DNA of 64,000 nucleotides from Thermoplasmata archaeon (GTDB lineage Archaea > Thermoplasmatota > Thermoplasmata > RBG-16-68-12). Made by a program: the position numbers and the translations under genes. Each line of letters opens with the position of its first letter. Within the stretch, counting starts at the first letter, position 1. The notes beneath the pieces were generated by a model. That model did not search any database and was not told the DNA's origin. It saw only the letters and a list, made by a program, of their open reading frames with translations. This document shows, one piece after another, positions 33,071 through 37,593 of the stretch. The stretch is taken from the NCBI GenBank assembly GCA_035636595.1, contig DASPYU010000016.1, positions 193,518 through 257,517 on the forward strand, given 5' to 3'.

Positions 33071-33120
33071 GTAAATCTCTCCGAATACGGAATTCGGGAC
33101 TCTGCCTATGTTGGGACTTC

Positions 33121-33127
33121 TATATAA
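33121..33127 (-). promoter_or_regulatory. TATA box (TTATATA on minus strand) of the thermosome / heat-shock operon promoter
   Basis: cgcttatatagaag on the minus strand, about 50 nt upstream of the thermosome ATG. AT-rich island within GC-rich DNA. Confidence 0.5.
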
Positions 33128-33492
33128 GCGTAGCGATGGATGGTTTGGTCCCATTGTCGGGGGATGCTTAAGAATACGCCCTGATGCGTCCCGTAGCGGG
33201 TGATGCAAATGGACTCCAAGAATCCGGAAGGGAATCGCCCTGCCGTTCCAGGACGGATGGGGCGACCTGATCCGGTGGGCGACCTACTGGAGCGCCCGAC
33301 GAGGGATGGCGTCCATGTAGGGTGCGTGCTACTGGTGGATTCATGCCTCCCGAGCCGACTGAAAGTGCCGAGGGATGCCTCTGACCATGGAACAGGAGGG
33401 TATGGACGCGCCGGTAACTTGTCCATACTACTTGTCGATGTATTCTCAGTACAGTAAACTGTAGACAAAAAGCCTTAATACGCACGCAGAGC

Positions 33493-33858
33493 TTGCTGAG
33501 AGCATGCGTACCTGAGACTCTGGAACAAACGGAAGAGGCCTTTTGTAGCTCTTGGCATCATCCGTCCAGAAACCCAGGACGAGAACACGTTAATATCGCG
33601 CCGGGCGTCCGGGTCGCCGTGCGGAAGGTGGTTTTCCCCAAGGACTTCAAGAGCAAGGTCCACCCAACCCAGATCAAACAGGCGTGCGAAAAGATACCTC
33701 CACGGAAGAAAACTCAGCACCTGAATCGCGATGTGGTGCTGACCATGGAGATGGGTGGTCCTTTTCTCTTTCTGACGTTCCAATACCATGAACATGAAGA
33801 CGAGGAAGTACTGTACGTAAAGAACGCGAAATGGACGAAATCTAAGGGTAAACGATGA
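33493..33858 (+). CDS. hypothetical small protein (TTG start), candidate toxin partner of the downstream Panacea-domain gene
   Basis: 121-aa ORF in lower-GC DNA. No in-frame ATG near its 5' end. Its stop overlaps the next ATG by 4 nt (ATGA). No recognisable domain. Confidence 0.25.
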   Translation: MLRACVPETLEQTEEAFCSSWHHPSRNPGREHVNIAPGVRVAVRKVVFPKDFKSKVHPTQIKQACEKIPPRKKTQHLNRDVVLTMEMGGPFLFLTFQYHEHEDEEVLYVKNAKWTKSKGKR

Positions 33859-34526
33859 CCGAAAACGGAGAGTGTGAGCACGAGGGGCAGTGGATTCCAA
33901 CCACCGCGGAGTTCGAGACCGTCCGCTGGAATGGCGAACCCCTCCTTTTGCACGACGTTCCAGCCAAGTCATGCCCGCTTTGCAATGAGACCATTGTCGA
34001 CGCGGATGATGTGATCCGGGCAGAGCAGAGATGGATAGCCGGAGAGCTGGGGCTTACTCCTCGGGAGGCAAACATCCTCCTGATGTTGTATGCCCAGGGG
34101 CCTCGATTCACCGAGACCGGTTATGTGGAGGAGAAGTACCGCTTCAACAAGATGCTCTTTTCCGTCTGGAAAGAACTCGAGAAGGAAGGGTTGGGGCAAT
34201 CTTTCCTCCACGACAGCTTCCGGGCGGAGAGCCGAGGGCCCGTTCCCGACAATCTGGAAACGGATTCGAAGTCTCTGGAAAGTAAGGGCCTTACCAAGGT
34301 GCGATGGGGAGGGAAGGCGGCCAAGACGTCATTCCGGTGGGATCTCACCACTGAAGGGTGGAATCGGTCGAAGCAGCTTTACAACTTGACACCTCAGGCG
34401 ATGCGTGACGCTGTGTCGAAAGCAAAGGAAGAACTCTTCCTGCTAGACTCCACCCAGATGATGCACAAGATCCACGAACTCTACCCCGAGTACAAGAAAG
34501 CTTACCGGGAAAAGGACGAAGAATGA
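33855..34526 (+). CDS. YgiT/MqsA-type zinc-ribbon plus Panacea (DUF4065) domain protein, putative type II antitoxin
   Basis: N-terminus GECEHEG...KSCPLCNETIVDADDVIRAEQ parallels the MqsA Zn-binding domain (CxxC/H ... CxxC). Central NILLMLYAQGP...FRAESRGPVPDNL matches the DUF4065/Panacea core (KLxKLLYxAQG ... FxAWxYGPV). Confidence 0.55.
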   Translation: MTENGECEHEGQWIPTTAEFETVRWNGEPLLLHDVPAKSCPLCNETIVDADDVIRAEQRWIAGELGLTPREANILLMLYAQGPRFTETGYVEEKYRFNKMLFSVWKELEKEGLGQSFLHDSFRAESRGPVPDNLETDSKSLESKGLTKVRWGGKAAKTSFRWDLTTEGWNRSKQLYNLTPQAMRDAVSKAKEELFLLDSTQMMHKIHELYPEYKKAYREKDEE

Positions 34527-34672
34527 GGCATCCCCTTCCACCGGAGCCCTCGGCACACATGCCGGGGGTTTCCTTTTTCGCCAGCCTTTTCCCAAGCCCT
34601 GGCCGCTTCGACGGCGAGAGTGGCACCTGAGGGAATTTCGCTGATACCCGAGACTTAAGGCGGCGGATTGTT

Positions 34673-34855
34673 ATGTCCGGGTCATTGGATACCCCACCCG
34701 CAACGCTGATCGGAGCCTTGATCGGGTTCGTCGGCGGACTCATCTATGGAGCCATGACCGGCCAGTGGATCACTGGCCTAATTGGCGGGACCATTATCGG
34801 AGCCATCGTCGGGGCTGTCGTTGACGCGATAGGCAAGCAGGTCGGAGGGGCCTGA
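34673..34855 (+). CDS. glycine-zipper micro-membrane protein (GlsB/YeaQ/YmgE-like)
   Basis: 60 aa. LIGALIGFVGGLIYGAMTGQWITGLIGGTIIGAIVGAVVDAIG with serial GxxxG/A motifs. ATG with AAGGCGG 8 nt upstream. Confidence 0.4.
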   Translation: MSGSLDTPPATLIGALIGFVGGLIYGAMTGQWITGLIGGTIIGAIVGAVVDAIGKQVGGA

Positions 34856-35125
34856 CCCCCCGACGGAAGGCCCTCACACGCCCGTCCGGGGCCAACAACG
34901 TCGCAACGGAACCCCACGTGGGCGTGCGCACAATCGCACACGGGGCGGCACTACGGCAGCCCAGTTTTCTTTCCGGATCGATCCTGACGACACGGGGCCC
35001 TTTATGAACCTCGACCCGAGGAGTTGACGAGACTCTCAGGCACTCTGACGCTCAAGCTCCTAGGCTCGAGAATCTTGTGCCTGGAAGGCCGCATGAGTGA
35101 TGGGCTCGGGACTGTAAGATGGAGG

Positions 35126-35530
35126 CTATTCATCCGGTGGCAACTCGATTTCCCATGTGCAGATCTCGACCAGAGTCTTCCTTATCCGGGTGTAGCTGGG
35201 TCCCGTGACGAGACTATGGGCCGGATTGGCCGTCTCCGGCGCATGCCGGACATTCAACTCACGGTCCCACATCTGGCCCGCGGTCGTCTTGACTACTCCA
35301 GCTCGTATCTCCGGTTTCGTCGAGCGTTCGAGAGTCCTCCGTGGCGTTGAGTATCTACTCCAGTCAAACGAGATGCCTTCGTCTATGTCACGCTCCTTCC
35401 CAAAGGCGCCAGGTTGAAGCTTGTGTTCGGGCCCCTTGGTGAAGTCGTCCGGCACCCATCTGAAGAAACAGTCCGCGGGATTCTTTATTTCCTGAGGCTG
35501 AGGAGGACCCTCTGCTAGCTCGTTAGCCAA
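35126..35530 (-). CDS. hypothetical protein (island ORF C) with HEPN-like Rx5H motif
   Basis: 134-aa ORF starting at TTG 16 nt before ORF B's stop. Same frame as ORF A. Contains RELNVRH and GISFDWSRYSTP. Confidence 0.3.
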   Translation of the reverse strand: MANELAEGPPQPQEIKNPADCFFRWVPDDFTKGPEHKLQPGAFGKERDIDEGISFDWSRYSTPRRTLERSTKPEIRAGVVKTTAGQMWDRELNVRHAPETANPAHSLVTGPSYTRIRKTLVEICTWEIELPPDE

Positions 35531-36069
35531 CTCACAAGACCTCGGTTCGGCTGGGTTGGATCGACGAGAGTACCATCGAATCTACCTCTGTCCTTACCGT
35601 CGCCTGCGAACTCCACTGGAAGTTTGGGGTCGGCCGGAATGTTGACAAGCAGGTTCAGATTTGGAAGATCCCAGAAAATGTCAATGCTCCCTTGCGGCCC
35701 CGGTCCGATCTCAGGCAGGGGCATGGGTTCGACGTTAAGACGTAGGTATTCCTGCCATTGGAGCCTCACGAACGCGATTGCCCTGTCCAGGGTGTCCTTG
35801 GAATAGCGAGGCGACCCCCGCCCGTCGAAGTTGTCCTTGAGGCCTAGGAGCCATTTGGCATCATCGATGATCCCGGCAAGCTTGTCGGACACAGCTGCGA
35901 ACTCGAGCTGCACCCCGTCCCGGTGCCGCTCCACGAGTTGTTCCAGCAGCGGCCGCGGCCTGACCGTATGCTGCGGCGGCCAAAGGTTGCGGGACTGAAA
36001 GTGCTGACGGTCCATGCAGGGCCACATCGGAATAGTCTTGCCATTAGAGTTCGAGAACGTTGATACCAC
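35515..36069 (-). CDS. hypothetical protein (island ORF B); possibly the out-of-frame middle segment of a disrupted larger gene
   Basis: 184-aa ORF that begins at GTG inside ORF A's last 26 nt. First ATG is 14 codons in. Its frame differs from A and C, which share a frame. Confidence 0.3.
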   Translation of the reverse strand: MVSTFSNSNGKTIPMWPCMDRQHFQSRNLWPPQHTVRPRPLLEQLVERHRDGVQLEFAAVSDKLAGIIDDAKWLLGLKDNFDGRGSPRYSKDTLDRAIAFVRLQWQEYLRLNVEPMPLPEIGPGPQGSIDIFWDLPNLNLLVNIPADPKLPVEFAGDGKDRGRFDGTLVDPTQPNRGLVSWLTS

Positions 36070-36724
36070 CTTCTCGCGCTGATGCCGTGAGACTTGCCTC
36101 CTTGTGAGTCGCCCTATCGAGCAACTTCTTCAGTTCCACGATGTCAGTACTGTCGAGAGCCACGAAGAAGTCCTTTGTCGTTTCCTCTCCATTCTCATGG
36201 AAGGTAATTTTCGCTTGATGCACGACGACAGCTGCCAACGGTCCCTTGTCCACATCTCTGCCAAATACTGGTCGTAGATCGGTCAGGATTCTCGCTGTGC
36301 AGAATACGTGATTCTGCTCGGACCGGACCTGGCTGGCTTTCGCGCTTACCCCAAGTGTGTCATCGAGTGAGAGGACTTGCGTAAGGTACGTCTTGAATTC
36401 GTTCCAGTTCACATCCTTCGTCGGCAGTTCGGGGTCTTTGGAGGCCTGAATTGTGTCGCATACATCCGCCGCAAACTTTTCCGTTGGATCCCCAGCGATA
36501 TCCATGGACTCATAGAGTCCAGCCAAAAGCCGGAATAGGCCATCCGCATCCGCTTTGGAAGCACCGGCCTTTTTTACCCACGCAGTAACGAAGCTGCGAC
36601 CGAGGAGGCTAGGCTTTGCTTCCTTCAGCACATCAAAGAGTTCCCTACGCTCCTTCTGAGAGAACCGAAGGAGCTGCGCGAGCACACGCTTCTGTTGTTC
36701 GGGAATTCCGAGACCGTCGGGCAT
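36044..36724 (-). CDS. hypothetical protein (island ORF A)
   Basis: About 226 aa from ATG 36724 (MPDGLGIPEQQKRVLAQLL...). Lower-GC codon usage. No recognisable domain. Its stop is overlapped by ORF B. Confidence 0.4.
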   Translation of the reverse strand: MPDGLGIPEQQKRVLAQLLRFSQKERRELFDVLKEAKPSLLGRSFVTAWVKKAGASKADADGLFRLLAGLYESMDIAGDPTEKFAADVCDTIQASKDPELPTKDVNWNEFKTYLTQVLSLDDTLGVSAKASQVRSEQNHVFCTARILTDLRPVFGRDVDKGPLAAVVVHQAKITFHENGEETTKDFFVALDSTDIVELKKLLDRATHKEASLTASAREGGINVLEL

Positions 36725-37017
36725 CGCGATCACGCCACGGCGGCTCTGATAGATTTGTTGTTCGCACGTACAAGAATGAATCTAGTGGTGACCAGAGAGC
36801 TGTCCCCTTCCCGGACGCAGGCGTCGTCCTTCCCCAGCAAGGACCCTTCCGAATCGACTATTGGATTTAAGGGTTTTGCCAAGGGGCGTCAAACCTTGCC
36901 GCTGGACGACCATGCACCTTAAGTTAACAAAACCCGCGCACCAGGTTTGACATTAGGAATCAGTCCTAAAGCGGCCACACCCGTCGCAATCCTTTGGTTT
37001 TGGAGTGGCAGATGGGC

Positions 37018-37464
37018 TCAGCTACCTGGAACGTACCATGACTGAACGTTCGTGAAACCCCACCGGACGAGCACGCTCTGCGCGACAGCGTAGCAACTTT
37101 CCGGCACGAGCAGCATGACCTTCGCTCCAGAGCTAACGTAGTCTCGTAACTGGCCGCGCGTGTGATCGTTGTCCAAATCCGCGCACGTCTTCACTTCGCC
37201 CATGACCCAAGCATTCCCCGGACCCAGCGCGGTGAGATCGGGAATCGATCCGCCGGCAGTTTGTCGTGGTTTGTTTGGAATCTCGGGCAAGGCGGCTGAG
37301 ATTTGAGTATATCCCCTTCCGCGTAGGGTTTCGACCCATCCGCGAAGCATACGGTCGTGTTGTTCCTGATCCGTCGAAAAAACCATGAGAAATCCGGCCT
37401 CGACTATCTCAGAGGGTCTGAGGCACATACTTAACTCTTTTCGGCGTTCGTTCCGATTGTTCAT
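37018..37464 (-). CDS. Hjc-type Holliday-junction-resolvase-like PD-(D/E)xK nuclease
   Basis: HDRMLRGWVETLRGRGY...IPDLTALGPGNAWVMGEVKTC...RGQLRDYVSSGAKVMLLVPE aligns with the Hjc pattern (ERELxKxLxxxGF...DLVA...IEVK...GRLIEF...VLAVKF). ATG 37464. Track start is TTG 37476. GC about 56%, versus about 67% for flanking genes. Confidence 0.45.
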   Translation of the reverse strand: MNNRNERRKELSMCLRPSEIVEAGFLMVFSTDQEQHDRMLRGWVETLRGRGYTQISAALPEIPNKPRQTAGGSIPDLTALGPGNAWVMGEVKTCADLDNDHTRGQLRDYVSSGAKVMLLVPESCYAVAQSVLVRWGFTNVQSWYVPGS

Positions 37465-37593
37465 CCGGATAACCAATCACCCAGTCAGTCCCCCGCGAGG
37501 GGACAGCTGGTCCATCCCCCGTTGATGAGACAACCTGATGGATTACCGCGCATGTGGAAAATCGGCGCCGTCCTCTCGCACGCGGTACCATAA

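Follow-up and report, generated by a model that had tools for sequence, protein, structure and literature searches.

A COMMD-like gene at the head of a conserved three-gene cassette in a Thermoplasmata archaeon: a real operon and a possible toxin–antitoxin or abortive-infection-type module

The ring of COMMD proteins is the core of the eukaryotic Commander trafficking complex, and its prokaryotic relatives were described only in 2025–26, their function being explicitly left open. Liu et al. (Nat Commun 2026, PMC13392464) determined the structures 9q6a, 9q6c and 9q6d of the octameric COMMD-like protein MBK5214510 by crystallography and cryo-electron microscopy, listed 361 prokaryotic COMMD-like members whose functions "remain obscure", and judged the family to lack nucleic-acid-binding surfaces. 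They examined the gene context in Myxococcota (type VI secretion system-like), Chlamydia and Halobacteria, without using the words operon, toxin or defence. In the eukaryotic complex, CCDC22 and CCDC93 attach to the HN domains of this ring by their N-terminal regions (10.64898/2026.02.02.703414). Here we analyse three overlapping open reading frames (ORFs), A, B and C, found on the minus strand between positions 35126 and 36733 of a 64,000-nucleotide (nt) stretch of a Thermoplasmata archaeon (GCA_035636595.1, contig DASPYU010000016.1, positions 193,518 to 257,517), the whole of which we call the window. We are practically certain that they are three real genes in an operon. The first of them codes for a COMMD-like protein, and similar cassettes are found in many bacteria with exchangeable second and third genes.

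The ORF of gene A (36044..36733) opens with a GTG at 36733 and has an in-frame ATG at 36724, from which its product (36044..36724) counts 226 amino acids (aa). Gene B (35515..36069) codes for 184 aa from GTG 36069 or for 170 aa from ATG 36027, and gene C (35126..35530) for 134 aa from TTG 35530 (M-A…). When the most upstream starts are used, A and B overlap by 26 nt (36044..36069), the stop codon of A (36046–36044) lying inside the 5' end of B, and B and C overlap by 16 nt (35515..35530), the TTG of C lying 16 nt within B. A and C are in the same frame (coordinate modulo 3 = 2) and B is in another one (modulo 3 = 1). These positions, frames and overlaps are as given in a preliminary description of the stretch, which offered two readings of them: a genuine three-cistron module with non-ATG starts, or a single gene with a product of about 535 aa, interrupted by two compensating frameshifts or by assembly errors.

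The broken-gene reading, that is, a single ancestral gene of about 535 aa turned into a pseudogene by two compensating frameshifts, or cut by two assembly indel errors, has in its favour that A and C share a frame with B shifted, that non-ATG codons open B and C at the overlaps, and that a natural A–B fusion exists. Nevertheless, we consider it extremely improbable. Regarding the assembly, three further assemblies agree with the window, with a single mismatch at most: an ENA contig, probably the window's own source, is 99.995% identical over 20.7 kb (one mismatch), a Logan assembly of another sequencing run is 100% identical over 4.0 kb, and a JGI soil metagenome contig is 100% identical over 2.1 kb, the last two including both junctions. 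Furthermore, the three-frame layout is kept in a relative of 77% nucleotide identity (our locus L076, GCA_036704725.1), in the closest bacterial-type relative (L001; 58% identity in A and 54% in B) and in dozens of phylogenetically distant bacteria. In the alignment with L076 the gaps within the ORFs net to multiples of 3, and C likewise begins at a TTG overlapping B by 16 nt. The divergence is concentrated at the third codon position of each ORF in its own frame (positions 1/2/3: 0.12/0.10/0.44 in A, 0.16/0.12/0.42 in B and 0.14/0.17/0.44 in C), but when the B region is read in the frame of A and C the peak shifts to position 1, with 10 synonymous versus 80 non-synonymous codon changes. Judging from this divergence, purifying selection is acting on each ORF in its own frame. 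All three also show coding-type periodicity in the GC content of their codon positions (GC1/GC2/GC3 of 0.63/0.39/0.60 in A, 0.64/0.42/0.69 in B and 0.58/0.48/0.65 in C).

Finally, a word-indexed search with the concatenated A+B+C product gave no match, and an exhaustive HMMER search with the same query against 1.84 billion representatives (a 50%-identity library) then succeeded, with 4,818 matches. Among the best 150 of them, no homologue had A, B and C in a single chain; they were standalone A-, B- or C-type proteins, with one exception, the 402-aa A–B fusion P0003 (locus L004), downstream of which C is still a separate gene. NCBI also lists three separate hypothetical proteins in a Thermoplasmata archaeon metagenome-assembled genome, HYT00102.1 (gene A), HYT00101.1 and HYT00100.1 (gene C, 134 aa). 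From the agreeing assemblies, the divergence from L076, the HMMER search and the NCBI annotation, the pseudogene and assembly-error readings are therefore refuted as far as sequence data go, and the three-cistron reading is the one that stands: many bacterial genomes have an intact A–B–C operon, in which every gene keeps a frame of its own and often overlaps the next, and L076 has the same arrangement. The preliminary description had itself named what would separate the two readings, namely intact three-gene operons with ATG starts in relatives or a single uninterrupted homologue elsewhere. B starts with ATG in L076 and L001, and the start of C in L076 is again TTG.

Two of the relatives show irregularities of their own. 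In L076 (positions 393-640), where B and C are intact, no canonical start codon is found for gene A at its conserved N-terminus. The sequence differs by 1 nt just before this point, and the first in-frame start, a TTG, comes only some 33 codons into the gene. Decay of A or an assembly error may account for this. In L001 (Logan SRR33154794, positions 1256-2569 and 1341-1748; also in L002 and L003) C is split in two frames, a DDE_Tnp_1 transposase gene overlaps it on the other strand, and this third gene appears from its sequence to be inactivated. Members of the 90%-identity cluster of gene A are called at 287 and 290 aa on short contigs, versus 226 aa here, probably because a start further upstream was chosen.

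Regarding the start codons, the claim that B has no ATG near its 5' end was wrong, as codons 15 and 19 are in-frame ATGs (36027 and 36015) that follow the stop codon of A, and public gene callers take the former, giving the 170-aa product. In L076 and L001, B begins at an ATG that overlaps A by 17 nt and is preceded by a Shine–Dalgarno-like GGAGGGG or AAAGGTGG, but the window has an ACG at that place (36058-36060). Since the ancestral ATG of B is an ACG here, the start of B in the window would be GTG 36069, the non-canonical ACG 36060 or ATG 36027, and the conserved domain is unaffected by the choice. A Shine–Dalgarno-like AAGGTGG also lies at about 36073–36067, at the A/B junction. By contrast, the same claim is right for C: no start other than TTG 35530 precedes its conserved N-terminus, and we take this TTG as the start of C because the next in-frame start would delete the invariant R24. 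The N-terminus "MA…" is conserved among the homologues of C, the TTG-GCT (M-A) start is kept in the 77%-identical L076, and a Shine–Dalgarno-like GAGGT lies 8 nt upstream of the TTG, in a B/C junction that is arranged identically in L076. Such overlapping junctions would couple the translation of all three cistrons.

We are highly confident that gene A belongs to the prokaryotic COMMD-like family. An AlphaFold2 model from 61 homologues (mean predicted local distance difference test, pLDDT, 95.8; predicted template modelling score, pTM, 0.84) consists of helices at residues 9–135, strands at 139–154, 162–177 and 183–190, and a helix at 192–218. This corresponds to the HN plus COMM architecture, in which an all-helical N-terminal HN domain is followed by a three-stranded antiparallel sheet and a long C-terminal helix. 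When the model was compared with the PDB by Foldseek, the top matches were 9q6a and 9q6c, that is, the COMMD-like MBK5214510 of a Flavobacteriaceae bacterium (E 2e-11 to 5e-10, template modelling score 0.69–0.77, 22–26% identity), followed by the human COMMD1–10 chains of CCC/Commander (E 3e-6 to 1e-3). The profile of the 61 homologues matched 9q6a_A over its full length (E=3.6e-37, profile 2–215 versus chain 21–233). The signature of gene A is ARILTDLRPVF, with R151 and H169 invariant, and the best 150 of the 4,818 HMMER matches, a total that includes matches to B and C, are mostly standalone A-type homologues of about 225 aa. The preliminary statement that none of the products matches a domain is right at the Pfam level, as scans of A, B and C against Pfam, PADLOC, NCBIfam and PHROGs gave no match, but it overlooked that A is COMMD-like. 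Foldseek found no match for A among viral structures. We also looked for the locus of MBK5214510 itself by a metagenome scan, in order to see if there is an operon there, and did not find it.

A pattern scan of one genome per GTDB species gave 71 loci with A homologues, mainly in Acidobacteriota, Planctomycetota, Actinomycetota and cyanobacteria. Together with three metagenome loci and the window they make 75 loci, and a co-directional second ORF follows A in 70 of them and a third one in 65. The genes are tightly packed: the junction between A and the second gene is overlapping or at most 20 nt long in 61 of 65 cases, that between the second and the third gene in 55 of 62, and the commonest value is a 4-nt overlap. 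Looking from the other end, C homologues on long contigs were the third gene of the same layout in all six sampled (6/6). The flanks of the trio have no recurrent neighbour, with 168 Pfam families among 131 flanking ORFs; the neighbours are heterogeneous and therefore the trio is a self-contained unit. In the literature searched, we did not find a conserved operon of COMMD-like protein, adaptor and variable enzyme, and searches combining COMMD with defence or toxin–antitoxin (TA) terms gave nothing relevant.

While A is constant across the 71 genomes, the C-terminal domain of the second gene and the third gene vary. The third gene is a DUF7689 protein in 25 of 63 and belongs to the window's own C family in about 20 loci, to which "type III" adds 4; these type III genes are probably, to judge from profile comparison (hhalign 83%), distant relatives of C. 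In L030, L061 and L026 a relation of the third gene to C is suggestive only. The remaining third genes are RES proteins in 2 loci (E 7e-17), HEPN proteins in 2 loci (E 4e-6), an aspartyl protease in 1 locus and unclassified singletons. In the sole IMG/VR locus (L084:5722-7537, IMGVR_UViG_3300010371_000004) a 151-aa second gene (N-terminal …SRDWSD) precedes a 222-aa third gene with the Fic signature HPFLNGNGRMGR. The DUF7689 third genes (26 loci, for example L014:2641-3237) have the motifs YNCIAWAA, THMARQ and SKLGxxEDIxH (W-SKLG-EDI-H), which suggest a Cys–His(–His/Asp) catalytic set; from these motifs we read them as a papain-like Cys–His enzyme. Some of them end in a hydrophobic or basic C-terminal extension. 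Literature searches found nothing mentioning DUF7689.

The cluster to which the C-terminal domain of a second gene belongs changes together with the cluster of the third gene, in 26 of 26 DUF7689 loci and 18 of 18 type II loci, the latter being the type of the window. The two second-gene domain types are unrelated (hhalign 0.2%); a single homologous second-gene family in 52 loci, as obtained by BLAST single-linkage, was rejected as chaining according to HMM iteration and hhalign. The second gene upstream of RES has a weak match, below the Pfam threshold, to the toxin-binding domain of the RES antitoxin, Xre_MbcA_ParS_C (E 0.054). What the unrelated second genes do have in common is a short tryptophan motif: [DENQ]W occurs within the first 45 residues, counted on the N-termini of the longest ORFs, in 36 of 66 second genes versus 8 of 131 flanking ORFs (Fisher p 5e-14), suggesting a common interaction with the constant first gene. 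Neither the co-variation, nor RES, HEPN or Fic-motif proteins in third position, nor the first gene described next, nor families B and C seem to be described in the literature searched.

The first gene can be exchanged too. In L080 (2658-3485), L081 (2601-3431, L081/L082) and L086 (1643-2464) a TIGR04255 protein of about 275 aa, "sporadically distributed", replaces A before the same B–C pair at the same spacing, and it is unrelated to the COMMD-like proteins (hhalign <1%). Nothing on TIGR04255 was found in literature searches. Directly after the trio of L086 (3528-6414) there is a type I restriction-modification HsdM gene and a 2,141-aa NACHT/AAA_16 protein, an arrangement that looks like a defence island.

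Gene B belongs to an uncharacterised family. A word-indexed search gave 70 homologues, none with a Pfam domain. Their N-terminal region of about 65 residues is variable and carries the short tryptophan motif (IPMW in the window), and residues from about 65 to 184 form a conserved domain with the consensus DxWDGxG…PxPxIxPGPDGSIDxxW…LLxNIP…GLxxWL. In the AlphaFold2 model, residues from about 41 to 190 (block-mean pLDDT 83–98) fold into two helices, an antiparallel sheet of five strands and a helix at the C-terminus. This model had no significant neighbour in the PDB by Foldseek (best E 0.048), nor did the profile of B match any PDB sequence.

Gene C is, on sequence grounds, a member of another uncharacterised family, the "type II" third gene, and a putative effector. 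It has 613 homologues at E<=1e-3, and the 120 listed are standalone "hypothetical" proteins of 108–165 aa without Pfam domain. R24, F43, S54 and H105 are invariant in 101 sequences, and the most conserved motif of the family is GISFDWSRYS in the window (consensus GMSTDWxxYS). Neither a profile search against PDB sequences nor Pfam, in which the 101 members gave no consistent signal even at E<=5, provided a match. The preliminary description had seen in C a HEPN-like tail, from the string RELNVRH together with GISFDWSRYSTP. Both strings are indeed there, but the HEPN reading failed: RELNVRH is no conserved Rx4-6H motif because its first arginine lies in a variable column, both in the 18- and in the 101-sequence alignment, the HEPN models of Pfam and PADLOC match neither C nor any of the 101 family members, and hhalign gives the C profile 5.4% probability against the HEPN third gene of L062. 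The general intuition of an effector fits better, as other versions of the cassette have real HEPN, RES or Fic-motif proteins in third position. C was also tried as a RES protein and as a DUF7689 protein, and both were rejected (hhalign 0.2% against the RES third gene of L058, and 0.3%). To our eye there is a loose likeness to RES in the order of motifs (φφR…, G-M-S-T).

Regarding the genomic context, the cassette lies in a low-GC island of about 4.4 kb (33100..37537, as seen in the composition profile, the codon-position GC and a synteny comparison). The GC content is about 53–63% in the island versus 61–72% in the flanks, and GC3 is 0.60–0.70 in the island genes versus 0.80–0.90 in the flanking host genes. 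On one side there is a thermosome–HSP20–GrpE–DnaK–DnaJ cluster and on the other side inositol-monophosphatase/NAD-kinase genes. A syntenic Thermoplasmata genome (GCA_030157125.1; L085:6314-9000 versus 33100-37537 of the window) has the same flanks and other cargo, namely a 172-aa ORF and a split alcohol dehydrogenase. The foreign GC content and the different cargo in the relative thus indicate that the cassette is horizontally acquired cargo in a variable slot, and this place between the thermosome and inositol-monophosphatase genes may be a hotspot of integration. Insertion sequence elements, restriction-modification genes, and Fic or NACHT/AAA genes adjoin some of the other copies of the cassette.

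We propose that the cassette is a TA or abortive-infection-type conflict module, a reading drawn from sequence and gene arrangement for which we see about equal chances of being right or wrong. The cassette is a compact co-directional operon, mobile and patchily distributed, as seen from its junctions, the low-GC island, the variable slot and the mixed neighbours. The RES, HEPN and Fic/Doc families are well known as toxins of TA and defence systems. For RES, this role is covered in work on aRES (10.64898/2026.01.28.702374). These recognised toxin domains (the Fic one as a motif) are found in sister cassettes, and none of them is in the window's own C. In the proposed mechanism, C would be the enzymatic effector and B its cognate neutraliser or adaptor, while A would assemble into a homo-oligomeric ring like that of its homologue, the solved octamer 9q6a, and act as the constant scaffold or sensor that controls the release or activation of the effector. 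The N-terminal tryptophan peptide of B would dock on the HN domains of this ring. This specific docking model comes from analogy with the binding of CCDC22 and CCDC93 in Commander, and we offer it tentatively, as less likely than not; the fusion P0003 is a natural physical link of A and B.

Several observations weigh against the conflict reading. PADLOC-DB 2.0, which would have given an independent annotation as defence genes, has no match for the three genes of the window or for the DUF7689, RES and TIGR04255 variants; the one match, a weak one, is that of the HEPN third gene (HEPN_IX). The immediate neighbours of the cassettes are mostly ordinary metabolic genes and not defence islands. A was not found in phage and plasmid collections by single-sequence tblastn, and one pattern-based scan of IMG/VR for A homologues gave only one contig. 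The locus L076, with A lacking a recognisable start and B and C intact, is awkward if A restrains a toxin. The B–C pair is also found behind TIGR04255 proteins and can hence do without the COMMD-like protein. For C, no relation to RES, HEPN or DUF7689 could be detected, and its half of a concatenated B+C AlphaFold2 model has pLDDT <45, that is, no confident fold. The tryptophan motif is a short one and its scoring depends on the longest-ORF N-termini. Moreover, Liu et al. obtained no AlphaFold-predicted complexes of COMMD-like proteins with their neighbours in Myxococcota, Chlamydia and Halobacteria (PMC13392464).

Part of these points would suit a real operon without any conflict role, in which the COMMD-like ring, B and C make a housekeeping or regulatory complex, for example the scaffold of a modifying enzyme with a cellular substrate, with the variable third genes as alternative catalytic subunits. 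The ordinary metabolism of most flanking genes, the missing PADLOC matches, the rarity of the cassette in the viral, phage and plasmid collections searched, and the lack of a recognisable toxin domain in C all speak for it, and eukaryotic COMMD proteins are scaffolds and not immune effectors (PMC13392464). It is, however, hard to reconcile with the patchy phyletic distribution and with an island of foreign GC content in a slot that has other cargo in a close relative. Furthermore, the third gene is swapped wholesale (RES, HEPN, Fic-motif, Cys/His DUF7689, aspartyl protease), three of these being the toxin families mentioned above, and a TIGR04255 protein can take the place of the first gene. 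We therefore regard such a complex as a serious possibility that is nonetheless rather unlikely.

The pair B–C might also be an ordinary two-gene TA system, the upstream COMMD-like or TIGR04255 gene being a hitch-hiker or a transcriptional or accessory factor without any physical complex. Two unrelated first genes can indeed precede the pair, the second gene tracks the third by its C-terminal domain as a cognate antitoxin would track its toxin, and L076 seems to have lost the start of A and kept B and C. Yet in 65–70 of the 75 loci A is followed by a second and a third gene that overlap or abut at their junctions, A and B are fused in one protein, and the N-terminal tryptophan motif is far above background in unrelated second genes. 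In addition, A has no DNA-binding domain according to Pfam, and its family has no nucleic-acid-binding surfaces according to Liu et al. (PMC13392464). This explanation is accordingly improbable to us, more so than the non-conflict complex, and a conflict module that includes A is the reading that we prefer of the three.

The rest of the low-GC island contains other ORFs. On the plus strand (33619-34526) a 79-aa ORF (33619..33858) overlaps a 223-aa ORF (33855..34526) by 4 nt. At its N-terminus the 223-aa product carries a zinc finger of YgiT/MqsA type (TIGR03831, E 4e-4, just above the cutoff) and the 79-aa one has no family match; this pair may be, from its sequence, a second TA-like module. 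Between the zinc-finger gene and the cassette (34673-34855, plus strand) there is a 60-aa hydrophobic protein of glycine-zipper type, with GxxxG repeats and weak glycine-zipper/OmpA-like matches, which is called as a gene in public assemblies. Upstream of A (37018-37476, minus strand) there is a 152-aa ORF of which public callers take only the last 61 aa. Its IPDL…GEVKT resembles, in our reading, a PD-(D/E)xK nuclease motif, and it has no family match.

Regarding the meaning of these results, it was already known that the family of A exists, and the three ORFs were annotated as hypothetical proteins. What the analysis adds is the link between a COMMD-like gene and a mobile operon with a co-varying adaptor and a swappable third gene, which gives a concrete and testable hypothesis for the function of these proteins. 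Two sizeable uncharacterised families, B and C, are defined, and the TIGR04255 proteins are tied to the same cassette. If the conflict reading is true, this would be a new type of scaffold for prokaryotic toxin or defence systems, and another eukaryotic cell-biology machinery would derive from prokaryotic conflict systems. In its widest and more doubtful form, the idea is that COMMD-like rings are the constant scaffold or sensor of widespread, unrecognised three-gene conflict systems with a tryptophan-peptide adaptor and a swappable effector (RES, HEPN, Fic, Cys/His DUF7689 or the R/S/H family of C), and that Commander descends from such a module. We regard this as a serious, though rather unlikely, possibility.

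A shares with the COMMD-like proteins described by Liu et al. the HN plus COMM architecture and homology over the full length, and in both cases they are single standalone proteins of about 225 aa, patchy in bacteria and archaea. The family nevertheless appears much larger here than the set of 361, as most of the best 150 of 4,818 matches are of A type, and gene A is bound to a conserved three-gene cassette. The ring proteins of eukaryotic Commander/CCC (COMMD1–10, with the N-terminal regions of CCDC22 and CCDC93; PDB 8f2r and 8p0w) share the fold of A, but there is no CCDC22/93 or Retriever homologue here, and the ring of A would be a homo-oligomer and not a heterodecamer. Its partners would be a small α/β protein and a putative enzyme, and the trafficking role is specific to eukaryotes. 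The TIGR04255 cassettes are the same in the B–C pair and its spacing, and differ in their unrelated first gene.

As for the HEPN ribonuclease effectors, C has a string that fits Rx5H (RELNVRH) and HEPN proteins occupy the third position of two cyanobacterial sister cassettes. Unlike in those effectors, the arginine of the string is not conserved in C, which has other invariant residues (R24, F43, S54 and H105). Finally, with regard to the type II and tripartite TA modules (RES–Xre/MbcTA/ParST, HEPN–MNT, Fic/Doc–Phd, toxin–antitoxin–chaperone TAC), the cassette differs in having no DNA-binding antitoxin domain, no MNT and no SecB-like chaperone, and the third gene of the window has no known toxin domain. 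To our knowledge, a COMMD-like ring protein as the first gene has never been reported in TA systems. Like those modules, however, the cassette consists of small, co-directional and coupled genes on a mobile island, its sister cassettes end in RES, HEPN or Fic-motif proteins, and the upstream partner co-varies with the third gene.

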